Below, in pieces: positions 3,584 through 26,823 of a stretch of 32,000 nucleotides of DNA. The notes under the pieces are model-generated. The model was not told the DNA's origin. It saw only the letters and a list, made by a program, of their open reading frames with translations, and searched no databases. This DNA comes from Paracoccus suum (GTDB lineage Bacteria > Pseudomonadota > Alphaproteobacteria > Rhodobacterales > Rhodobacteraceae): contig NZ_CP030918.1 in assembly GCF_003324675.1 (NCBI RefSeq), positions 2,220,001 through 2,252,000 on the forward strand, in the 5' to 3' direction. Position 1 is the stretch's first letter. Each line of letters begins with the position of its first letter. Made by a program: the position numbers and the translations under genes.

Positions 3584-4306
3584 CTAGTAGCTGCGGATCA
3601 GACCCACCAACCTGCCCTGAATCTTGACCTTGTCCTCGCCGAGGATCCGCGTCTCGTAGGCGGGGTTCGCAGCTTCAAGGGCAATCATGTTTCCCTTGCG
3701 GCGATAGCGCTTGAGGGTGGCCTCGTTGCTCTCGACCAAGGCGACCACAATGTCGCCGTTATCGGCCGTAGTCTGCTCGCGGATGACCACAACGTCGCCG
3801 TCGTTGATGCCTGCTTCGATCATCGAGTCGCCCTTCACCTCGAGGGCATAGTGATGCGTCCGACCGGAGATCATGGTCCCCGGCACGGCGATATGGTGCG
3901 AGACCTCGCTGATCGCCTCGATGGGGACACCCGCCGCAATCCGGCCCATGACGGGCAGATCGACCGAGGACGATACGACCGGCATGGCGTTGCGTGGCGG
4001 TGGCCGGCGATCGCCTTCGATCACCTCGGGGCGGAAAGCAGAGGCCGCATCCGGCCCGGCGATGGTGCCGGGGGGCACGCGGCCGCCGATACTGTCAGGC
4101 AGGCGGACAATTTCGAGAGCGCGCGCCCGGTGCGGAAGGCGGCGGATGAAGCCGCGCTCCTCAAGCGCGGTCACCAGTCGATGGATGCCGGACTTGGAGC
4201 GCAGGTCGAGCGCCTCTTTCATCTCGTCAAACGAGGGAGGAACGCCGTCACGAGCCATCCGGGACTGGATGAAAGTGAGCAACTCAACTTGTTTTTTCGT
4301 CAGCAT
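3584..4306 (-). CDS. lexA: LexA repressor (SOS regulator, S24 autopeptidase)
   Basis: 240 aa. The N-terminus is [65 protein letters not shown] (winged HTH). The C-terminal S24 domain reads [13 protein letters not shown]...[23 protein letters not shown]...ATLKRY. Confidence 0.95.
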
Positions 4307-5508: not shown

Positions 5509-6930
5509 TCAAACGCCGCAGAATGCGTCAGGCTGCGACCACAAGGGGGCAGCGACCACGCGGTTGCGTCCCATGCTCTTGGCACCAAGCAGCGCCCGGT
5601 CTGCGCGCAGCATGATGATGTTGGCCAGTTCGCCCTGCATCCCGCGGGCAAGGCCGATCGAGGCGGTCACGGCGATCTGGCCGCCGCCAAGAATGGCTGG
5701 CAGTTCGACCGGCGCAGCGGCAACGCACCGGCGCAGACCATCGGCGGCTGCCTCGGCGCCGCCGGGTAGGAGGTTTGGTATGGCGATCAGAAACTCCTCG
5801 CCGCCGATCCGGGCGAGCAAGGCGGAAGGGGGAAGCACATGCGCGAGGCGGCACGCAACTTCGGTCAGGACGGTGTCGCCGGCGGCATGGCCGTAGGTAT
5901 CGTTGATGGCCTTGAAGCAGTCGAGATCGACGACCATCACCGCCAGTTCGCCGCGCTCGGCCTCCGCTGCCATCGCTTCGAGGCGCGGCATGGCGAAGCG
6001 GCGATTGTGAAGGCCAGTCAGTGGGTCGGTGACCGCCCAGTGCCGTTCCGCCTCAGCGGCGAGGCGGCGGTGGTCGGCTGCCCGCTTGCGCTTGAGTTGC
6101 GCGGTGATGCGCAACGCGGCCTCCTCGGCGACCGGACGGTCGCGCAGGGACATGGGCAGTACGTCTCCCGCGCCGAGGTCGAGCGCGACCGGGGCCAACG
6201 CGGCCCGCTCGTCACTGAGCGCAATGATGAAGGCCGCGCCGCGAGAGGAAGGCCTGGCGCGCAATTCGGACAACAGCCGCAGGCCATCGCCGGGCAGGGC
6301 GAGGTCGGCGGCGATCAGATAGACATCGCCCGGGCGGCCGGCTGCGGCATCGTTCAAGGCGCGCTCGGCCGAACTTGCCTCGATAGAGAACGGACCGTGT
6401 CCGCCAAGCGCCTGCTTCCAGCCGATGACCGTGGCGCCATCAGGGGCGACCAGGACCAGCCGGCCTTTCGGCGAGGGCGCGGGGGCAAAGCTTGCCGGCG
6501 CCTCTGCGAGACCGAGCGCCGCGAATGCGTCTGGCACCGTTGGTGTGTCCGGGCCGGCAAGGGGCCGGCCGCCACCGGCCATCAGGTTTCGAATCCGGGC
6601 GAGCAGCAAAAATTCGTCGACCGGACGCTCTAACACCGCGTCTGCGCCGGCACGCACGGCTGGGAGGCGACCCGAGGCATCGCAAAGGGCAATGACCGGG
6701 ATTGCGCGGGTCAGGGGATCGGCCGCCAGGCGCCGGAAAAGCTCGATCGCGCCTCCGCCGGGTAGTGCATCGTCGACCAGGAGCAGATCCGGAACCTGGG
6801 CCCGCGCCCCCGCCAGCGCCGTGTCGACGTCGGTGGCCACGCAAGTATCATAGCAGGCCGCGGACAGCTTGACCTTCAGCGCGATCCGATTCCTGGATAC
6901 AGCATCGGCGATGAGAATTGTGCCTGACAT
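5509..6930 (-). CDS. PleD-like response regulator diguanylate cyclase (REC-REC-GGDEF)
   Basis: The N-terminus aligns by eye with Caulobacter PleD (ILIADAVSRNRIALKVKLSAACYD...PDLLLVDDALPG...DPLTRAIPVIAL...ERPVDEFLLLARIRNL). A second degenerate REC follows, then GGDEF (DPLTGLHNRR...MVVDLDCFKAINDTYGHAAGD...RIGGEEFLIAIP). Confidence 0.85.
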   Translation of the reverse strand: MSGTILIADAVSRNRIALKVKLSAACYDTCVATDVDTALAGARAQVPDLLLVDDALPGGGAIELFRRLAADPLTRAIPVIALCDASGRLPAVRAGADAVLERPVDEFLLLARIRNLMAGGGRPLAGPDTPTVPDAFAALGLAEAPASFAPAPSPKGRLVLVAPDGATVIGWKQALGGHGPFSIEASSAERALNDAAAGRPGDVYLIAADLALPGDGLRLLSELRARPSSRGAAFIIALSDERAALAPVALDLGAGDVLPMSLRDRPVAEEAALRITAQLKRKRAADHRRLAAEAERHWAVTDPLTGLHNRRFAMPRLEAMAAEAERGELAVMVVDLDCFKAINDTYGHAAGDTVLTEVACRLAHVLPPSALLARIGGEEFLIAIPNLLPGGAEAAADGLRRCVAAAPVELPAILGGGQIAVTASIGLARGMQGELANIIMLRADRALLGAKSMGRNRVVAAPLWSQPDAFCGV

Positions 6931-7377: not shown

Positions 7378-7959
7378 ATGCACGGTCTCATCAACCGCTC
7401 GATCGAAAGCTTTCTGCGCGACAGCTATGGAGAGGCTGCGTGGAACAGTGTTGCCGATGCACTGGGGATCGAGCGCGAGGGCTTCGAGCCCTTTCGGCGC
7501 TATCCTGACGCGGACACCCATTGCCTCGTCGCGATCGGCGCTCGGGTCTTGGCAAAGCCCGAGGCCGAGTTCCTGGAGGATGTCGGAGCGTGGCTCGCCC
7601 GGATAGAGCCGGCGCGACGATTGCTTCGCTTTTCTGGCGCGGATTTTGCCGATTTCGTCCTCGCGCTGGAGGAGTTGCCGGGTCGCGCCCATCTGGTGTT
7701 GCCCGATCTCGACATGCCGAGGATCAGCGTGCTGGTGCAGGGTGAGGCGCAGTTCTGTGTCGCCGTCACCCATTCCTTCCCGGAGTGGCGCTGCGTCCTG
7801 GCGGGCGTCTTGCGCGCCATGTCGGATGAGTATGGCGCCCTCGCGCTCATCGTGGATGAGGGGGCCTATATCAGTGTCGACGTCTCTGACGACAGCTTCG
7901 GCGCGGCGCGCGACTTTGACCTCGGCGCGGGGCCGCGCGCGCACAGGGAGGCGATCTGA
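7378..7959 (+). CDS. H-NOX (heme NO/O2-binding, HNOB) domain protein
   Basis: Start re-picked at ATG 7378. MHGLINRSIESFLRDSYGEAAWNSVADALG is the characteristic H-NOX N-terminus, and a His falls at position 105 (PGRAHLVL). The stop overlaps the next ATG (TGATG at 7957-7961). Confidence 0.8.
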   Translation: MHGLINRSIESFLRDSYGEAAWNSVADALGIEREGFEPFRRYPDADTHCLVAIGARVLAKPEAEFLEDVGAWLARIEPARRLLRFSGADFADFVLALEELPGRAHLVLPDLDMPRISVLVQGEAQFCVAVTHSFPEWRCVLAGVLRAMSDEYGALALIVDEGAYISVDVSDDSFGAARDFDLGAGPRAHREAI

Positions 7960-9044
7960 TGCGCGACGAGGCACTGGATTTCGGGGACGTCGGCAGGCTG
8001 ATGCCAATGCACCTGCTGATCGACGAGGACGGCTGCATCGTCTCCAGTGGGCCGACCATTCGTAAACTGACCAAGGGCGCCGCCAACCTGACCGACAGCT
8101 TCGTAGTTGAGCGCCCGCACCCCGGGGACGGACCGGCCGCGGCTGCGCTGGCCGAGGCTGCGCGCAACGGCGCGCGCGTCTTTCTGCGCCAGATACAGAC
8201 GCCGTTCACCGTTTTGCGCGGCCACGCCGTGCCGGTTGGCAGGGGACGGCTGCTGGTAAACCTCGGCTTTGGGATCAACCTGCCGCAATCGGTCCGCCAG
8301 TTTGACCTCACAGACGCCGACTTTGCCCCCAGCGACCTGGCGATGGAGCTGTTGTTTCTGCACGAGGCCAATGCCGCCGCGACGGGCGCACTGTCGCATT
8401 TCAACGCTCGCCTGGACGAGGCTCGCCGCACCGCAGAGGCGGATTCCACCACCGACGCGCTGACAGGGCTCTGCAACCGGCGCGGCCTCGATGCCGCCTT
8501 GCTTGGGCTGACACGGACGGCCGACGGGACGGCCACGCGGCGCCAGGGCGATCCTGCCGGTCATGCGGTCATGCACATCGACCTCGACGGTTTCAAGGCG
8601 ATCAACGACGCCCATGGCCATGCGACGGGCGATCTTTTGCTGCGGCACGTCGCGGCAGTGCTTGTCGAACAGACCCGCAGCAGCGATGTCATCGCGCGTC
8701 CTGGCGGAGACGAATTCGTGGTGGTGCTGCCGGGCACGACCTCTATCGCCTCGCTGGATTCTCTGGCGGAACGGATCATCACCCGGATCGAAAAACCGGT
8801 CGCCTTGGGCGCGGTCGCGGTTTCCGTCTCGGCCAGCATCGGCATCGCGCTCAGCTGCGACTATCCCGGGGTCGGGCACGAGACGCTGGCGCGCGAGGCG
8901 GACGCTGCCCTCTACGCCGCCAAGCGCGCCGGACGCGGCCGGGTCTGCCGCTGCACCGGCTTTGGCGCGGCGACGGTCTTTAAGGGCCCGTGGCGCGAGC
9001 GGCCGGTGCTTGCGCTGGCGCATGACAGCCGGGGTGGCGCTTGA
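7959..9044 (+). CDS. Diguanylate cyclase with HNOBA-like N-terminal domain (H-NOX partner)
   Basis: The N-terminus (MPMHLLIDEDGCIVSSGPTIRKL...) is followed by a coiled linker and GGDEF (DALTGLCNRRGLD...HIDLDGFKAINDAHGHATGD...RSSDVIARPGGDEFVVVLPG). An RxxD I-site is present, and the gene is translationally coupled to the H-NOX gene. Confidence 0.85.
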   Translation: MRDEALDFGDVGRLMPMHLLIDEDGCIVSSGPTIRKLTKGAANLTDSFVVERPHPGDGPAAAALAEAARNGARVFLRQIQTPFTVLRGHAVPVGRGRLLVNLGFGINLPQSVRQFDLTDADFAPSDLAMELLFLHEANAAATGALSHFNARLDEARRTAEADSTTDALTGLCNRRGLDAALLGLTRTADGTATRRQGDPAGHAVMHIDLDGFKAINDAHGHATGDLLLRHVAAVLVEQTRSSDVIARPGGDEFVVVLPGTTSIASLDSLAERIITRIEKPVALGAVAVSVSASIGIALSCDYPGVGHETLAREADAALYAAKRAGRGRVCRCTGFGAATVFKGPWRERPVLALAHDSRGGA

Positions 9045-20429: not shown

Positions 20430-23324
20430 ATGAACCGTTTTCTGGGATGTGTTGGCGCCGGGCTGCTGATTGCTGCCGGGCCCGCCTGGGCGGATTTGCC
20501 GTCGTCGGCAACGCATGAGGCGATGGACGTGCCCGGTCTGGAAAAGCCAGCCGAAATCATCGTCGACCAATGGGGCGTGCCGCATATCTATGCCGGCACC
20601 GACCGCGATGCGCTGTTCCTACAAGGCTACAATGCCGCCCGCGACCGGCTGTGGCAGATCGACCTGTGGCGCAAGCGCGGCCTGGGCAAGCTGTCGGAGA
20701 GCTTTGGTGACGCCTTCGTCGCGCAGGACCGCGCCGCGCGCATGTTCCTTTATCGCGGCGACATCGAGGCGGAATGGGCCGCTTATGGCCCGAACGGCAA
20801 AGCATATGCCGCTGCTTTCGTCGACGGCGTGAACGCCTATGTTCAGCAGGTCCTGGATGGCGATCGGCCCATGCCGGTCGAGTTCGGGCTGACAGGCTCT
20901 AAACCCTCGATTTGGGAGCCTGAGGACGTGGTGCGCATTCGCAGCCATGGCCTGACCCGGAACGCCGCCTCGGAGGTTGACCGCGCGCGGATCACCTGCG
21001 GCAAGGACATCGAGGCCGACCGTCTGCGCCAGAAGCTGGAGCCGGAATGGACCCCCATGGTGCCCGAGGGCCTCGATCCCTGCTCGATCCCCGAGGATGT
21101 CTTGAAGGATTACGAACTGGCGACCCAGAACGTGAAGTTCGAGGTTCCGAAGGCGGATGGGGCGGCTGCGCCGGCTGGAGCGGAAGCCGCGAGCGGCTCG
21201 GCCGCGCCGGCCGCAGGCGCGACCTCCGGAACCGAGGCTGCGGCGCCAGCGGCCGCACCGGCCGATCCGGCTGCGGCAACGCCCGCCGACGCGACTGCGA
21301 CCCCGACGGCGGAGCCTGCTGCGGGCGAGACGCCCGCCAACGATACCGCCGTGCCCAACGATGATGCGGCAGCCGCGCCCGAGCCGGCCGACGCACCCGC
21401 AGATGCTGCGACTGACGCATCGGCCAGTGGCGGTACTGATACCGTCCCCGGCGCAGCTGACGCGCCGGCCGGAGCCGCGGCTGATGCCCCAGCCGACGCG
21501 CCGGCCGACACCTCCGCGGACGCCCCGGCCGAGCCCGCCGCGCCTGCGGCATCAGACCCAGCGGCGTCGCCCCTGGTCCCCGCGGCCCCGGACCCTGCGG
21601 CTCCTGCGAGCCACGAGAACGGCCAGTCCTCGGGCGACAAGCAATCCGCCCTGAAGCCGGCCGATTTCCTGCGCGAGGTCGCGGCCGAGGTTCACGAGAT
21701 TGGCTCGAACAACTGGACCATCGCCCCCTCACGCACGGCGACGGGCCGCCCGATACTCGCGAACGACCCGCACCGCGCGCATGGCGTGCCGTCGCTGCGT
21801 TATGTCGTGCATCTGAACTCGCCGGGCATGTCCGTCATTGGCGCGGGCGAGCCGGCACTGCCCGGCATCTCGATCGGGCATAATGACAAGATCGGCTTTG
21901 GCCTGACGATCTTTGCGGTCGATCAGGAGGATATCTTTGTCTACGAGCTGAACCCCGACAACCCCGACCAATACCGCTACAACGGCGAGTGGGTCGACAT
22001 GGAGGTCGTGCGCGACACCATCCCGGTGCGGGATGGCGAGGCGCAGGAAGTCGAGATGCGGTTCACCCGGCACGGCCCGGTGCTGAAGGTCGACGCCGAG
22101 AACAACCGCGCATTCGCCTTCCGCAGCGTCTGGTTCGAGCCGGGCACCTCGGCCTATTTCGGCTCGGTCGACTATATGGGCGCCAAGAATTGGGACGAAT
22201 TCCGCACGGCGATGGCACGCTTTTCGGCCCCGTCCGAGAACCAGGTCTATGCGGACACCGATGGCAACATCGGCTGGATCGTCGGGGCGATGTCGCCGTT
22301 GCGCAAGAACTGGGACGGGCTGCTGCCGGTGCCGGGCGATGGTCGGTACGAGTGGGGCTTCCTCGAACGTTCGGAACTGCCCTCGGTCTACAATCCCGAG
22401 GCCGGGTATTTCGCCACGGCCAACCAGATGAACCTGCCCGAGGGCTATCCCTACAAGGAGAACAAGGTCGGGTTCGAATGGTCCGATCCGGCGCGGTTCA
22501 ACCGCATTACCGAGGTGCTGTCGGCCAATGACAAGGTCACGCTGGCCGATTCGATGGCGCTGCAGAATGACGACAACAGTCTGATGCAGCGGCGGCTGGT
22601 CGCGCTCTACAAGGGCGTGAACTTGCCGGAGACAGCGCCGCAGGCCGAGCGCGATGCGCTGGCGCTGATCCAGGGGTGGGATGGCGTGACGGCGGCTGAC
22701 AGCGGCGCGGCCGCGGTGGGCGAGGTGCTGTTGAGCAAGCATCTGGTCCCGACAGCAGCGCCCCGCGTGCTGGACGCGCCGCTGGCCGAACTGCTGGGCA
22801 GGGGCGCGATCACGCCGATCATGGACCTGATGGAGGCGCCGGATGATCGTCTCGGGTCGGACCCCGCGGCGGCACGCGACGAGATCCTCGCCAAGGCGCT
22901 GAGCGGGGCGGTCACCGAAACGACCGAGCTGTTGGGCGAGGACCAGGCCAACTGGCAGTGGGGGGACATCCACAAGGGCAAGTTCACCAGTTCGGTCGCG
23001 GGTTTGGCGCGGCCGGGGCGGGCGAGCCAGCTGAACGTCGGGCCGCTGTCGATGGGCGGGTCGGCCTACAGTCCCCGCGCGGCCAGCTATAACGACAAGT
23101 TCGAGGTCACCTCGGGCGCGTCGTTCCGCATGGTCCTGGATGTCGGCAACTGGGACGCCAGCCGGTTCGTCAACACCCCGGGCCAGTCCGGCGATCCGAT
23201 GAGCGCGCATTATCGCGACCTGGCGCCGCTGTGGGCCGCGGGCGATTACGCGCCGCTGGTCTATTCGCGCGAGGCAGTCGAGGCCGCGGCCGAGCATGTG
23301 ATCGAGCTGAAGCCCGCGTCCTAA
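20430..23324 (+). CDS. Penicillin acylase family (Ntn hydrolase S45; includes AHL acylases) protein with expanded spacer
   Basis: Signal peptide, then IIVDQWGVPHIYAGTDRDALFLQGYNAARDRLWQIDLWRKRG (alpha subunit). EIGSNNWTIAPSRTATGRPILANDPH follows (beta-subunit N-terminal nucleophile Ser at 21705-21707), then a long conserved beta subunit. Confidence 0.9.
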   Translation: MNRFLGCVGAGLLIAAGPAWADLPSSATHEAMDVPGLEKPAEIIVDQWGVPHIYAGTDRDALFLQGYNAARDRLWQIDLWRKRGLGKLSESFGDAFVAQDRAARMFLYRGDIEAEWAAYGPNGKAYAAAFVDGVNAYVQQVLDGDRPMPVEFGLTGSKPSIWEPEDVVRIRSHGLTRNAASEVDRARITCGKDIEADRLRQKLEPEWTPMVPEGLDPCSIPEDVLKDYELATQNVKFEVPKADGAAAPAGAEAASGSAAPAAGATSGTEAAAPAAAPADPAAATPADATATPTAEPAAGETPANDTAVPNDDAAAAPEPADAPADAATDASASGGTDTVPGAADAPAGAAADAPADAPADTSADAPAEPAAPAASDPAASPLVPAAPDPAAPASHENGQSSGDKQSALKPADFLREVAAEVHEIGSNNWTIAPSRTATGRPILANDPHRAHGVPSLRYVVHLNSPGMSVIGAGEPALPGISIGHNDKIGFGLTIFAVDQEDIFVYELNPDNPDQYRYNGEWVDMEVVRDTIPVRDGEAQEVEMRFTRHGPVLKVDAENNRAFAFRSVWFEPGTSAYFGSVDYMGAKNWDEFRTAMARFSAPSENQVYADTDGNIGWIVGAMSPLRKNWDGLLPVPGDGRYEWGFLERSELPSVYNPEAGYFATANQMNLPEGYPYKENKVGFEWSDPARFNRITEVLSANDKVTLADSMALQNDDNSLMQRRLVALYKGVNLPETAPQAERDALALIQGWDGVTAADSGAAAVGEVLLSKHLVPTAAPRVLDAPLAELLGRGAITPIMDLMEAPDDRLGSDPAAARDEILAKALSGAVTETTELLGEDQANWQWGDIHKGKFTSSVAGLARPGRASQLNVGPLSMGGSAYSPRAASYNDKFEVTSGASFRMVLDVGNWDASRFVNTPGQSGDPMSAHYRDLAPLWAAGDYAPLVYSREAVEAAAEHVIELKPAS
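21153..21610 (+). repeat. Low-complexity Ala/Pro/Asp/Thr/Glu-rich coding tract with imperfect 12-nt (PADA-like) periodicity
   Basis: About 150 codons made almost only of A, P, D, T, E, G and S (for example DAPADAPADTSADAPAEPAAPAASDPAA). They sit inside the acylase ORF between the alpha domain and the nucleophile Ser. Confidence 0.8.
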
Positions 23325-23358
23325 ACTGCCGCCTGGCCGCGGAGCGGGAAATTCCTGG

Positions 23359-23397
23359 AAAGCCGGCAGGGAGACCTCTGCCGGCTTTCGCTTTGTT
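23359..23397 (+). terminator. Rho-independent terminator of the acylase gene
   Basis: Perfect 11-bp stem aaagccggcag / ctgccggcttt with an 8-nt loop, followed by a T-rich tail (tttcgctttgtt). Confidence 0.8.
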
Positions 23398-23629
23398 GGA
23401 TGGAGAGTCGGCACGCGATGGTCGAGTGTTCGATCGGTCTATTCAGCGTGCCCCTTTAGGCCTCGTCACGGAGTGTGTGCGTGATGACAGTCGATGGACT
23501 TCCCGATTCCCGCAGGTCGCGTCGGCGTTGCTGGGCGAGATCCAGACGGTGTTGCGGGGGTGTTGCGCGCCGTGGCGCCAGTAAACGCTGGGAAACAAGC
23601 GGTTAACCGTGCGCCCTCGGGCCGCCAGA

Positions 23630-23658
23630 TTGACTTGGCGAACGGTGCGGGGTACAAC
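23630..23658 (+). promoter_or_regulatory. Candidate sigma70-type promoter upstream of the GTA cluster (TTGACT-17 nt-TACAAC)
   Basis: TTGACT at 23630-23635, an exactly 17-nt spacer, then TACAAC at 23653-23658. Found by eye, with no experimental or comparative support. Confidence 0.3.
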
Positions 23659-23685
23659 AACGACATGCTGGGAGAGGTGGGCAAG

Positions 23686-23720
23686 CGGCCGGGTCGGGAA
23701 CGACCGACGGGCCGTTTTTT
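23686..23720 (+). terminator. Intrinsic terminator / attenuator hairpin in the GTA leader
   Basis: cggcc-gg-gtcgg gaacga ccgac-g-ggccg forms 5 + 5 bp with a small internal loop and a hexaloop. It is immediately followed by tttttt (23715-20) and lies 49 nt upstream of the g1 ORF. Orientation is plus-strand only. Confidence 0.6.
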
Positions 23721-23768
23721 CATGTCTCGCGCCTGTGCGGACGGGCCCTGAGGCAGGACAACCAAAGA

Positions 23769-24212
23769 ATGACAGTGATGTGCAACCGTGGCCTTCAGGC
23801 TGCGGACGGACCCTATGTGCCGGGACAAGGCCAAGGGTCAAAGGATGGCGAGGCGGTCCGCATCAGTCCGGAATCGGGCTGCGCCGGAGGGACCGAGGAC
23901 GTCGACCTGGAGGACGTGATCCGTCAGGCATTCGGAACGGTCGGCGGCCTGTTCAACAGCTGCGCCGACAAGATGCAGGCGATGAATGACCGGTTCGACC
24001 GGGGCGAGCTCGACGACCTGAAGGACGCGGTCAAGCTGGCGCGCGAAATGCGCGGCGCAACCCTCGTCATGATCGAGGAGAGGAATCGCATTGAAAAACT
24101 TCGCAAGGATGTTGCCGGGGGATGCGGCGGCGCAGGCGCCCTCGACCTTGACGCAGCACGAGAGGAAATCGGGCGCAGGCTGGCTTGCCTGCGCCGCGCC
24201 GCAGGAGGTTGA
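23769..24212 (+). CDS. g1: GTA g1 (small-terminase-like protein of RcGTA-type clusters); start uncertain
   Basis: The call rests on position directly upstream of terL and a helical charged sequence (ELDDLKDAVKLAREMRGATLVMIEERNRIEKLRKD...LDLDAAREEIGRRLACLRR). Coding-like GC3 only becomes clear from about 23890, so in-frame GTG 23817, GTG near 23907 or ATG near 23970 are alternative starts. Confidence 0.55.
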   Translation: MTVMCNRGLQAADGPYVPGQGQGSKDGEAVRISPESGCAGGTEDVDLEDVIRQAFGTVGGLFNSCADKMQAMNDRFDRGELDDLKDAVKLAREMRGATLVMIEERNRIEKLRKDVAGGCGGAGALDLDAAREEIGRRLACLRRAAGG

Positions 24213-25509
24213 CGCCTTCCTCGGCGGGCTGAGCGACAATGCCCTGGCGGCATTGCCCTGGCTGTTCGAATTCTGGGCGCTGCCGCACCAGTTGCCCCCC
24301 GAGGGCGACTGGAAATCCTGGGTCATCATGGGCGGGCGCGGGGCGGGCAAGACCCGCGCCGGCTCGGAATGGGTGCGGCGCATGGTCGAGGGCACCACGG
24401 CCACGGCCCTCGGCGCGGCCCGGCGCGTCGCGCTGATTGGCGAGACCATGGACCAGGCCCGCGAGGTGATGATTTTTGGCGAGAGCGGCATCCTGGCATG
24501 TTCGCCCCCAGACCGGCGGCCGGTCTGGGAGGCGACGCGCCACCGCCTGGTATGGGCCAATGGCGCCACCGCCTCGGTGTATTCGGCGCATGAGCCGGAG
24601 GCCCTGCGCGGCCCTCAGTTCGATGCCGCCTGGGTCGACGAGCTGGCCAAGTGGAAAAAGGCCGAGGATACTTGGGATATGCTGCAGTTCGCGTTGCGGC
24701 TGGGCAGCCATCCCCAGCAGGTCATCACCACCACGCCGCGCAATGTCGCCGTGTTGAAGCGGATCCTGGGCAATGCCTCAACCGTAACGACCCATGCGCC
24801 GACCGACGCCAACCGCGCCTATTTGGCGGAGAGTTTTCTGGCCGAGGTCGAGACCCGCTATGGCGGCACGCGCCTTGGCCGGCAGGAACTGGACGGCGCG
24901 CTGCTCGACGATGTCGAGGGCGCGCTGTGGACCCAGGCGATGCTGGAGGGCTGCCGCGTCGCGCGGCCGCAGAAGCTGTCGCGGATCGTGGTCGCGGTCG
25001 ATCCGGCCGTCACCGGCGGCAAGGCCAGCGATGAATGCGGCATCATCGTCGCCGGCGTCGTAGCCGAAGGCGATCCTTCGCAATGGCGGGCCTATGTGCT
25101 GCAGGACGCGACCGTAAGGGGCGGCCCGACCGACTGGGCGCGGGCGGCGATTGCCGCCGTCGACCGGCACCGGGCCGAGCGGCTGGTGGCCGAGGTGAAC
25201 CAAGGCGGCGATCTGGTCGAGAGCGTCATCCGGCAGGTCGATCCGCTGGTCCCGTTTCGGGGCCTTCGCGCGGGTCGCGGCAAAGGCCTGCGGGCCGAGC
25301 CGGTTGCCGCCCTCTACGAGCAGGGGCGGATCAAGCATGTCGCGGGGGGCCGGTTCGGCGCGCTCGAGGATCAGATGTGCCAGATGACGGTCCGAGGCTT
25401 TGAGGGGCAGGGGAGCCCCGACCGGGTCGATGCGCTGGTCTGGGCGATCCACGAGCTGATGATCGAGCCGGCCCAGGGCTGGCGCCGGCCGCAGGTGCGG
25501 ATGCTTTAG
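24091..25509 (+). CDS. g2: GTA large terminase (TerL)
   Basis: LPWLFEFWALPHQLPPEGDWKSWVIMGGRGAGKTRAGSEWV (Walker A), then DELAKW (Walker B-like) and a C-terminal nuclease region. TTG 24091 is preceded by GAGGAGAGGA with a 6-nt spacing; ATG 24109 is an alternative start. Confidence 0.9.
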   Translation: MKNFARMLPGDAAAQAPSTLTQHERKSGAGWLACAAPQEVDAFLGGLSDNALAALPWLFEFWALPHQLPPEGDWKSWVIMGGRGAGKTRAGSEWVRRMVEGTTATALGAARRVALIGETMDQAREVMIFGESGILACSPPDRRPVWEATRHRLVWANGATASVYSAHEPEALRGPQFDAAWVDELAKWKKAEDTWDMLQFALRLGSHPQQVITTTPRNVAVLKRILGNASTVTTHAPTDANRAYLAESFLAEVETRYGGTRLGRQELDGALLDDVEGALWTQAMLEGCRVARPQKLSRIVVAVDPAVTGGKASDECGIIVAGVVAEGDPSQWRAYVLQDATVRGGPTDWARAAIAAVDRHRAERLVAEVNQGGDLVESVIRQVDPLVPFRGLRAGRGKGLRAEPVAALYEQGRIKHVAGGRFGALEDQMCQMTVRGFEGQGSPDRVDALVWAIHELMIEPAQGWRRPQVRML

Positions 25510-25551
25510 CAAGGTCGGAGTCTGCGGACCGCTGACGTGGCGGAGACAAGG

Positions 25552-25585
25552 AAGGGCTGGCGATCCGCCGGCCCTTTTGCTTTTT
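25552..25585 (+). terminator. Terminator-like hairpin plus T tract between terL and portal
   Basis: aagggctggcg atc cgccggccctt forms 11 bp including one G-U pair. It is followed by ttgcttttt and lies inside the 93-nt terL-portal spacer. Confidence 0.45.
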
Positions 25586-25602
25586 GTGATGGAGGACGCG
25601 AG

Positions 25603-26823
25603 ATGGCGTTGCGACTGTTTGGCCGGGGCGGCGCGCCCGAGCCTGCCGCGCCCGCCCCGGTCGTGGAGCGCAAAAGCTCTGCAACCGGGCGGGTCGTGGC
25701 CTTGGCGTCTGGATCGGGCCGCGTGGCGTGGTCCCCGCGCGACACTGCCAGCCTGACGCGGGCCGGTTTCACGAACAACCCGGTCGGCTTCCGCACCGTC
25801 AAGCTGATCGCCGAAGCCGCGGCCGCCGTGCCTTTGGTCTGCCAGGACGCGGACCGGCGCTACGAGGTGCATCCGGTCCTCGACCTTCTGCGTCGTCCGA
25901 ACCTGGGGCAGGGCCGGGCCGAGCTGTTCGAGGCGCTTTACGGCCAGTTGCTGCTTACCGGGAACGGCTATCTGGAGGCCGTCGGCGAAAACGACGGCGG
26001 CCTGCCGGACGAGCTGCACGTCCTGCGTGCGGACCGGATGGCGCTGGTGCCCGGCGAGGACGGCTGGCCTGTCGCGTTCGAGTATCAGGTCGGCGGTCGC
26101 AAGACCCGGTTCGACATGACCGGCAGCCCCGATCCGATCTGCCACATCAAGGCGTTCCACCCGCAAGACGATCACTACGGGCTGTCGCCAATGCAGGCGG
26201 CAGGCGTGGCGGTGGACGTTCACAACAGTGCCTCGGCCTGGTCTAAGGCGCTGCTGGACAATGCCGCGCGGCCGTCGGGCGCGATGGTCTACAAGGGGGC
26301 CGACGGGCAGGGGGTCATGTCCCCCGAGCAGTTCGAGCGCCTGCAGTCCGAGATCGAGATGCACCATCAGGGCGCGCGCAACGCGGGCCGTCCGATGCTG
26401 CTGGAGGGCGGGCTCGACTGGAAGCCGATGGGGTTCAGTCCCAGCGACATGGAGTTTCACCAGACCAAGGACGCCGCCGCGCGCGAGATCGCGCTGGCTT
26501 TTGGCGTGCCGCCGATGCTGCTGGGGATACCGGGCGATCTGACCTATGCCAATTACGCCGAGGCCAACCGCGCCTTTTATCGCCTGACGGTCCTACCGCT
26601 GGCGACGCGGGTGTCGGCCGCAGTCGCGTGGTGGCTGTCCGAACATCTGGGCGCCGAGGTCGATCTGAAGCCCGACCTGGACCAGATCCCGGCGCTTTCG
26701 GACGAGCGTGACCAGCACTGGCGCCGGGTTGCCGCGGCGGATTTTCTGACGCCGGCCGAAAAGCGCGCCGCCTTGGGTCTGCCGCCGCTGGCGCCGGACC
26801 TGCTGCCGACGGCCGAGGGCTGA
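25603..26823 (+). CDS. g3: GTA portal protein (HK97 family)
   Basis: Start re-picked at ATG 25603 (SD GGAGGA at 25591-96). Typical HK97-portal stretches are present: NNPVGFRTVKLIAEAAAAVPL, LLLTGNGYLE, HYGLSPMQAA, FGVPPMLLGIPGD.TYANY.EANRAFY. Confidence 0.9.
   Translation: MALRLFGRGGAPEPAAPAPVVERKSSATGRVVALASGSGRVAWSPRDTASLTRAGFTNNPVGFRTVKLIAEAAAAVPLVCQDADRRYEVHPVLDLLRRPNLGQGRAELFEALYGQLLLTGNGYLEAVGENDGGLPDELHVLRADRMALVPGEDGWPVAFEYQVGGRKTRFDMTGSPDPICHIKAFHPQDDHYGLSPMQAAGVAVDVHNSASAWSKALLDNAARPSGAMVYKGADGQGVMSPEQFERLQSEIEMHHQGARNAGRPMLLEGGLDWKPMGFSPSDMEFHQTKDAAAREIALAFGVPPMLLGIPGDLTYANYAEANRAFYRLTVLPLATRVSAAVAWWLSEHLGAEVDLKPDLDQIPALSDERDQHWRRVAAADFLTPAEKRAALGLPPLAPDLLPTAEG

Follow-up and report, generated by a model that had tools for sequence, protein, structure and literature searches.

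Production of GTAs is lethal to the cell that makes them, and only a small fraction of cells switches it on. The mode of action of the regulator GafA is debated, the protein being described as a sigma-like factor, as an activator or as an antiterminator.

GafA corresponds to GafY plus GafZ (PMC11150451). In the CcGTA of Caulobacter, activation is by GafY/IHF, and GafZ, with NusA/G/E, bypasses the terminator terGTA (Tran and Le, 2024; PMC11150451). In the BaGTA of Bartonella, the Q21-like protein BrrG acts on the leader terminator T_bgtA-K, and deleting this terminator leads to uniform expression (preprint, 10.1101/2024.11.20.624540). For RcGTA-type clusters, GafA as an antiterminator is a matter of speculation only, in both PMC11150451 and 10.1101/2024.11.20.624540, and in the literature on RcGTA and GafA we found no terminator described in an RcGTA-type leader and no measurement of termination or read-through. 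The first-pass annotation of the locus studied here knew of no promoter-terminator checkpoint ahead of a GTA operon; for GTAs at large the idea is not new, antitermination having been published for CcGTA and reported in a preprint for BaGTA, and for RcGTA-type clusters it has only been speculated upon.

In R. capsulatus, the RcGTA promoter is not constitutive and requires GafA for activity (Fogg, 2019). Among the promoter probes used in EMSA, GafA bound only that of the middle segment, pGTA2, which comprises the spacer, the -10 and the transcription start site (TSS) and ends just before a terminator-like hairpin; the TSS mapped by RNA-seq falls within pGTA2, that is, upstream of the hairpin (Fogg, 2019). 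The fragment bound by full GafA is also a target of its C-terminal domain, and the N-terminal fragment of GafA binds promoter fragments 1 and 3 (Sherlock and Fogg), fragment 3 presumably being the hairpin probe. gafA has been reported throughout Rhodobacterales; no gafA-like gene was found among the ORFs scanned in the window (the whole 32,000-nucleotide stretch of Paracoccus suum DNA analysed here), so that its presence in this P. suum strain rests on that literature statement.

The RcGTA-type cluster of P. suum and the region upstream of g1

Two features frame the leader examined here:

23358..23397, plus strand: terminator of the penicillin-amidase gene, with a hairpin at 23358-23389 (14-bp stem, 9 G-C pairs) and then the T-rich GCTTTGTTGG
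23769..24212, plus strand: GTA g1, an RcGTA small terminase homologue and gene 1 of the head-tail operon, with a conserved N-terminus and with TerL and portal genes next

A P. suum protein named 'permease' at NCBI matches the ORF at 23769-24212 (+) with 100% identity, and the TerL and portal genes that follow identify this ORF as g1 of an RcGTA-type GTA cluster. Its ATG at 23769 is backed by the N-terminal motif MT..F.PG..EGP, common to Paracoccus homologues. With this start genuine, the U tract described below ends 48 nt before the first gene and a promoter hidden further 3' is excluded; a later g1 start, with which the promoter would follow the hairpin, was likewise ruled out by the conserved g1 N-terminus.

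Upstream of the leader lies a penicillin-amidase-family gene (20430-23324; Pfam Penicil_amidase, PF01804). As the first-pass annotation had it, this acylase gene has a terminator of its own, the 14-bp hairpin with its T-rich tail, and this already shields the GTA promoter from upstream transcription. Its view that no ORF before g1 looks coding also holds, the ORFs in 23398-23768 giving zero Pfam or NCBIfam matches.

A conserved promoter with a motif in its spacer

The elements upstream of the transcribed leader, and the one at its predicted start, are the following:

23549..23567, plus strand: candidate far-upstream activator site, two direct repeats of GTGTTGCG (23549-56 and 23560-67)
23630..23635, plus strand: -35 hexamer TTGACT, homologous to that of the R. 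capsulatus RcGTA promoter, with TTGAC invariant in 77/77 aligned leaders
23638..23644, plus strand: conserved motif of the spacer, GCGAACG (in general CG-NN-CG), where the GafZ-like C-terminal domain of GafA may load
23653..23658, plus strand: -10 hexamer TACAAC, TAGAAn in most relatives
23664..23669, plus strand: NANNNT '-10-like' element CATGCT, 5 bp 3' of the -10 and near-invariant

TTGACT and TACAAC are separated by a 17-nt spacer in P. suum. A consensus promoter scan rejected TACAAC because its position 6 is not T; the first-pass annotation had picked TTGACT-17-TACAAC as the best promoter candidate, its coordinates are correct, and the same -35 and -10 are conserved at every related locus. 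T24 and A25 of the -10 are invariant, G26 and A27 are conserved at 90% or more, and position 6 is variable. The poor match of this -10 to the consensus implies dependence on an activator.

In the set of leaders retrieved through g1, G11 and C14 of the spacer motif are invariant and A13 and G15 are present in at least 90% of sequences. Conservation and position, the latter within the 50-bp R. capsulatus probe bound by GafA, make the P. suum motif a candidate GafA-binding element. Sequence conservation inside a -35/-10 spacer is in itself unusual.

The columns of CATGCT were near-invariant also in the unbiased alignment (C 79/80, A 80/80, T 78/80, G 80/80, C 80/81, T 81/81), where the discriminator columns between it and the -10 vary. 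NANNNT at a 5-bp spacing is how the element for sigma-dependent pausing is described at lambdoid PR' promoters and at that of BaGTA (10.1101/2024.11.20.624540), and CATGCT is by its sequence a candidate for such a pause. A repeat of the promoter -10 in the transcribed region (GAGAA) was rejected as the pause element, with only 2/6 matches in the window.

The R. capsulatus RcGTA promoter, as assembled from the EMSA probe table (Fogg, 2019), runs from ...GCACTTGAC through TTTGCGAACGCTTCAAGGTAGAGATAAGGCATGCTAGGAGAGGTGGGCAA to GCGCCGCGGGTGACCGTGTGCGCTTTTTTCATTT...ATG. The probes, in which a few bases differ between forward and reverse oligos, have the same layout as the P. suum leader, including the hairpin and T6. 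This homology, together with an R. capsulatus TSS upstream of the hairpin, places the predicted P. suum TSS near A23665, and it speaks against a GTA start 3' of 23720, the outcome with which the first-pass annotation would have given up its reading.

Further upstream, the two GTGTTGCG repeats of P. suum lie at ~-116 and ~-105 from the predicted TSS (-79 and -68 from the -35), and both are retained in the closest relative. Across the related loci described below, GTTGCG occurs at ~-69 and ~-91 from the -35 hexamer in 70/80, compared to a background of 0.13 per 200 nt, and the upstream repeats lie ~105-127 nt before the predicted TSS. These repeats may have a regulatory role.

A hairpin and U tract between the promoter and g1

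Downstream of the predicted start, the leader contains four further features:

23670..23684, plus strand: purine-rich 5' segment GGGAGAGGTGGGCAA, near-invariant, a potential partner of the U tract and CAUGUCUC in a lower stem of the read-through RNA
23685..23715, plus strand: terminator hairpin, with outer stem GCGGCC/GGCCGU, internal loop and inner stem GUCGG/CCGAC
23715..23720, plus strand: U tract (T6), directly 3' of the stem and ending 48 nt before g1
23733..23751, plus strand: second conserved hairpin region, CUCGUG..CACGAG in relatives and degenerate in P. suum

The core hairpin, C23686-G23714, can be extended to G23685-U23715, and its stem in P. suum has an internal loop and a closing G-U pair. 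Its positions and those of the U6 that follows had been given correctly in the first pass, and the gap to g1 is 48 nt. On its own the hairpin folds at -20.7 kcal/mol; a 71-nt segment of the leader folds at -36.1 kcal/mol (z = -4.3), and 0/200 shuffles did as well. With a G+C-rich hairpin and an adjacent U tract, the leader terminator has the sequence hallmarks of an intrinsic (Rho-independent) terminator. It is predicted to span ~+21 to +56 relative to the predicted TSS, with ~20 nt preceding the stem, and termination by default would be expected to yield a leader RNA of ~57 nt. A simple terminator scan missed the leader hairpin because of the internal loop, and in the region it returned about as many sites as in shuffles. 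On the single P. suum sequence the case for promoter and terminator is thus only suggestive, and it is conservation that lifts both above chance.

Two other kinds of leader control were considered and rejected. A riboswitch or alternative-structure attenuator is excluded by the first 35 nt of the leader RNA, which show no folding beyond that of shuffles (z = -0.08), and by the mere ~20 nt before the stem; we found no competing antiterminator structure and no Rfam family, a scan of 22800-24400 at E up to 10 returning only noise. A leader peptide is excluded because the ORF from ATG 23666 varies from 5 to 173 codons, lies in all three frames relative to g1 and in many relatives begins with AAG.

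Conservation and covariation in related genomes and metagenomes

Scanning species-representative genomes with the g1 alignment yielded 80 loci, mostly from Paracoccus, with others from Rhodobacter spp., Phaeovulum, Acidimangrovimonas and some MAGs. Across these 80 loci, strong conservation extends over the 140 nt before g1, with the shared layout TTGACT-N17 (with GCGAACG)-TAGAAn-5 variable nt-CATGCT-GGGAGArrTGGGCAAG-hairpin-CTTTTTTCATnTCT-hairpin CTCGTG..CACGAG-g1. In Acidimangrovimonas, ~200 nt are inserted between terminator and g1, and promoter, hairpin and T run are intact. Among the matches listed, the TerL homologue search returned Paracoccus only, and the g1 profile search mainly Tabrizicola and related Rhodobacter-like sequences, R. 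capsulatus not being among them; nothing matched in the phage collection, and in the plasmid collection only Paracoccus second chromosomes did.

A covariance model built from 77 leaders found exactly one full-length copy per locus, always upstream of g1, in 81/81 cases including the window (97 bits), and matched 2/2 extra loci, from the closest P. suum relative and a Tabrizicola genome. No further leader copy was detected in the 32-kb window or in the ~8-kb loci, minus-strand matches being the same hairpin read backwards. The geometry is equally constant: counted from the -35, the hairpin starts at +56 or +57 in 81/81 sequences. In 82 sequences the terminator hairpin has 9-11 pairs and folds at -15.6 to -24 kcal/mol, and 5-7 T occupy the 8 nt after the stem in the 73/82 in which the fold isolated the terminator hairpin (the T count is not applicable in the remaining 9/82, for which the script took the longer two-hairpin stretch).

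For IMG/VR, contigs were retrieved with a degenerate pattern limited to the promoter and 5' arm, without the 3' arm and U tract, which gave 106 contigs. Full-length model matches (46-138 bits) were present in 80/80 of the contigs tested of these 106, and 79/80 are followed after ~317 nt, on the same strand, by a TerL with 63-85% identity to that of P. suum. In a separate fold test, 103/106 showed a hairpin (median -20 kcal/mol) with at least 5 T in the 8 nt directly 3' of it. As read from these sequences, the promoter-terminator arrangement is kept in nearly 190 related clusters.

RNAalifold on a plain MAFFT alignment misaligned the variable inner stem, and a hand-drawn structure with model-based realignment was used instead. 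In the two resulting alignments, which are fitted to the model and in which kinship among sequences inflates the compensatory counts, pairing was as follows:

Genome-set alignment: 96-97% of cells paired, ~50% with partners slid; compensatory pairs 7 of 25-26; covariation score reached in 0/500 shuffles
Diverse IMG/VR alignment: 93% of cells paired, ~50% with partners slid; compensatory pairs 16/25; 0/500 shuffles on all five measures

The two robust measures, those counting pairs and pair types, are clearly exceeded. Among the compensatory changes of the genome set, G-C is replaced by C-G in the outer stem and by U-A in the inner stem. The comparison that the first-pass annotation had named as a check, an alignment of upstream regions with covariation in the stem, therefore came out in its favour: hairpin and U tract are conserved, and compensatory changes go beyond shuffles. 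Pairing in helix 3, the second hairpin, stands at 90-97%, and in the diverse set each of its 5 pairs shows compensatory changes; in the window, 2/5 of its pairs are non-standard in the model alignment.

A second terminator-like site is found within the P. suum operon:

25550..25588, plus strand: intrinsic-terminator-like site, with a hairpin at 25550-25578 (13-bp stem) and then GCTTTTTGTG

It lies between g2 and g3, in the 93-nt gap from the TerL stop at 25509 to the likely portal start, ATG 25603. A comparable post-TerL site is present in 49/75 related loci, compared to 0-2/75 control windows, and in 23/99 IMG/VR loci, compared to 0/99 controls.

Parallels with lambda, Caulobacter, Bartonella and UpsM

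The first-pass annotation had likened the locus to lambdoid PR'-tR' on account of a promoter closely followed by a terminator, and the likeness is strengthened by the conserved spacer motif and by NANNNT 5 bp after the -10. Like PR'-tR', the leader has a conserved element between -35 and -10, NANNNT just 3' of the -10, and an intrinsic-type terminator before the head, tail and packaging genes, with a short terminated RNA as the presumed default; further terminators inside the operon are also common to both. By sequence, the cis parts of a Q-type circuit (spacer element, NANNNT and a terminator before the late genes) appear to be present. Unlike in lambda, where tR' is ~190 nt downstream of the start, the leader terminator here is much closer, at ~+21 to +56. 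Moreover, GafA, presumed here to be the factor, does not resemble Q in sequence, and the R. capsulatus promoter is GafA-dependent rather than constitutive.

With CcGTA, the RcGTA-type clusters share homologous regulators and a terminator that must be bypassed for cluster expression, in the latter as proposed here. The spacer motif sits where the Caulobacter ZBE (and the lambda Q-binding element) sits, between -35 and -10, and the far-upstream element at ~-105 to -127 compares with the GafY-binding YBE of Caulobacter at -123 to -113. On the other hand, the ZBE palindrome GCGCCCG-CTGGCGC is unlike GCGAACG, and terGTA is made up of three GC-rich direct repeats of 150 bp that come after the first gene and behind a UTR of 229 nt, whereas the RcGTA-type terminator is a compact canonical hairpin and U tract before the first gene. 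The Caulobacter terminator, being of another kind and in another place, is therefore an analogue and not a homologue, and no sequence homology was found between the CcGTA and RcGTA-type leaders.

BaGTA also has its terminator between the promoter and the first structural gene, and NANNNT 5 bp 3' of the -10; the role of its leader terminator, as shown by deletion, is that proposed here for the RcGTA-type terminator. The lineage of this GTA is, however, a separate one: its leader measures 864 bp, its L-shaped terminator is weak (-6 kcal/mol), its promoter is constitutive and BrrG is encoded in the ror locus. The RcGTA-type leader terminator is thus homologous to neither the Caulobacter nor the Bartonella terminator.

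UpsM, the dcw cluster sRNA of Rhodobacteraceae (PMC5089854), likewise stems from a Rho-independent terminator in a 5' UTR that releases a short RNA, its downstream operon requires read-through, and the element is family-wide. It differs in its 268-nt UTR and in an sRNA much longer than the ~57 nt predicted here, as well as in its Hfq-dependent cleavage by RNase E and in having no link to a promoter-loaded factor.

A probable leader checkpoint and its alternatives

The probable reading, towards which we lean on balance, is that the head-tail operon of RcGTA-type clusters has a tR'-like leader checkpoint and that processive antitermination of the GafA type lets the polymerase through. RNA polymerase would start near A23665, from a promoter of the sigma-70 type whose -35 is close to consensus and whose -10 is poor. 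Unaided, it would meet the intrinsic terminator at ~+21 to +56 and release the ~57-nt leader RNA, leaving g1 and the later genes silent. GafA, encoded elsewhere in the genome, would dock through its GafZ-like C-terminal domain on the spacer motif during a halt of the polymerase at the -10-like element NANNNT. Thus made termination-resistant, the polymerase would pass the leader terminator and later sites such as that between g2 and g3. That the operon needs terminator read-through, as the first-pass annotation proposed, is borne out in so far as the order of promoter, intrinsic-type terminator and g1 holds in the sequence. The reading joins the cis elements, fixed geometry, conservation and RNA-level covariation observed here to what the literature provides, namely GafA binding to the homologous 50-bp fragment, the R. 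capsulatus TSS and GafZ antitermination in Caulobacter. Termination at the hairpin in vivo and its suppression by GafA are what we infer from them.

This would not be a new principle; it is the missing cis element that is supplied here, for the largest and best-studied GTA family. If true, the RcGTA-type, CcGTA and BaGTA lineages all keep the logic of lambda late genes, and the leader terminator would be a lock against leaky, lethal expression. The conserved covarying terminator, the spacer motif and NANNNT are precise mutational targets for the GafA question, and these leader elements make the mechanism of GafA directly testable. The covariance model, in turn, specifically marks where RcGTA-type clusters begin in genomes and metagenomes.

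Since GafA acts as a classical activator as well, the leader terminator may be redundant rather than the switch. Were it a fixed attenuator or dampener, a constant terminated fraction would lower the output of the GTA promoter, and regulation would take place entirely at initiation through GafA. The terminator features are equally expected under such a scheme, which also agrees with GafA being documented as a promoter-binding activator and with the lack of an alternative RNA structure that could make termination conditional. It leaves NANNNT, the spacer motif and the second, intra-operon terminator unexplained, however, and the homologous regulator GafZ is an antiterminator; we consider it unlikely.

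Another reading is in terms of RNA stability or processing. Stem-loops set mRNA half-life in the puf mRNA of Rhodobacter, and here a long 5' helix could protect the 5' end or be an RNase III or RNase E site, the U tract serving solely to pair with the purine tract. A ~21-bp helix can indeed form in read-through RNA between GAGAGGUGGGCAAG and the U tract with CAUGUCUC (-50.6 kcal/mol for the whole leader), and the lower-stem columns are >94% paired. This pairing comes mostly from base composition, with shuffles reaching 86-93% and little covariation, so that the lower part of the long helix (purine tract with U tract and CAUnUCU) is weakly supported. Moreover, the U residues near the stem stay U opposite G (G-U 67-72 vs G-C 1-3) although C would pair better, a bias that selection for helix stability alone would not give, that a terminator U tract predicts and that points to selection on U identity itself. 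The U run also always begins right after the G-C stem, and ~8 unpaired nt before the helix would make for poor protection of the 5' end. An element of this kind is, in our view, quite improbable.

It is very unlikely that the ~57-nt terminated RNA is itself the functional product, acting in trans as an UpsM-like sRNA, for example in feedback on GTA regulators. Terminator-defined 5'-UTR sRNAs do occur in Rhodobacteraceae (UpsM, PMC5089854), a terminator inside the 5' UTR is so placed here that it could release a short RNA, and the single-stranded 5' part is near-invariant, as a seed region would be. That conservation is equally explained, however, by DNA contacted by GafA, this part lying within pGTA2; the data at hand suggest no target, there is no match to an Rfam family, and no GTA-leader RNA is named in the main text of the sRNA survey of R. 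capsulatus.

A DNA-level palindrome (for instance for the N-terminal domain of GafA, whose N-terminal fragment binds fragments 1 and 3, fragment 3 presumably being the hairpin probe) or an insulator against read-in, with the real promoter downstream, is very improbable, since the inner stem varies freely in sequence yet stays complementary, a sign of RNA and not of a protein-DNA code, the upstream gene already has its own terminator, only 48 nt, devoid of promoter-like sequence, separate the U tract from g1, and the R. capsulatus TSS is upstream of the hairpin.

Counting against the preferred reading is that the conserved 5' purine tract can pair with the U tract, so that the long helix may have a role in the read-through RNA. 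Beyond being a stop signal, the leader RNA might itself be active in the switch, either with the invariant purine segment and hairpin as a nut/put-like site, at the RNA level, of GafA-Nus assembly, or with the ~57-nt RNA accumulating and acting in trans (on GTA regulators, for example) and so aiding bistable expression restricted to a subpopulation; we regard this idea as distinctly doubtful.

Upstream motifs of the GTA promoter

Far upstream of the GTA promoter, whose −35 hexamer is TTGACT, the P. suum window carries a repeated motif:

23549-23567, two GTGTTGCG direct repeats, spaced 11 nt

The GTGTTGCG motif is present in 70 of 80 loci, and in most Paracoccus loci it lies at about −69 and −91 relative to the −35 hexamer, with a spacing of 22 nt. 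The repeats probably constitute a far-upstream regulator site; the GafY-binding element of Caulobacter CcGTA occupies a similar position. In the Rhodobacter-like loci L059, L068, L071 and L077, the repeats are replaced by GGTTAACGA-N5-GT(G/T)AA, about 50-60 nt 5′ of the −35 hexamer and similar to CtrA half-sites (TTAAC). This replacement by a CtrA-like motif hints that the GTA promoter may be wired to different upstream regulators in different lineages.

Closer to the promoter, CAACC-N4-GGTTTA is found directly 5′ of the −35 hexamer (~20 nt) in the related loci L001, L003 and L013 and in most Paracoccus loci; R. capsulatus has GCAACCCTGAATAT at this position, and P. suum lacks the motif at that position and has GGTTAACC at 23602-23609 instead.

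Leader region and g1

In the related Acidimangrovimonas sediminis locus (L061), an insertion of ~200 nt (3727-3934) separates the leader terminator from g1, the first gene of the head-tail operon, and leaves the promoter, hairpin and T run all unaltered, which argues that the distance between terminator and promoter is constrained while that between terminator and g1 is free.

The leader also holds a second conserved hairpin, with covariation in the diverse set:

23733-23751, second leader hairpin, CUCGUG..CACGAG

Its P. suum version is degenerate, with two of five pairs broken, and its 3′ arm overlaps a GAGG lying ~15 nt from the g1 ATG, a distance too great for this GAGG to act as a normal Shine-Dalgarno sequence. 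The g1 product itself (23769-24212) has 147 residues in P. suum, compared to ~115-120 in most Paracoccus homologues, from which it differs by an insertion of ~30 residues behind the N-terminal motif.

Terminator-like site between TerL and portal

TerL stops at 25509, and portal probably starts at the ATG at 25603, which is preceded by GGAGGA. The intervening 93 nt contain a further hairpin:

25550-25588, strong intrinsic-terminator-like hairpin, 13-bp stem followed by GCTTTTTGTG

A terminator-like site 3′ of TerL occurs in 49 of the 75 related loci and, among IMG/VR loci, in 23 of 99 (control windows, 0-2). Among the related loci compared, it was not found in the Rhodobacter-like ones.

GGDEF genes upstream of the cluster

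Two genes for GGDEF-domain proteins, one of which has a response-regulator receiver domain, lie ~15 kb 5′ of the GTA cluster:

5509-6930, minus strand, GGDEF-domain protein
7959-9044, plus strand, GGDEF-domain protein

In R. capsulatus, RcGTA production is affected by c-di-GMP.
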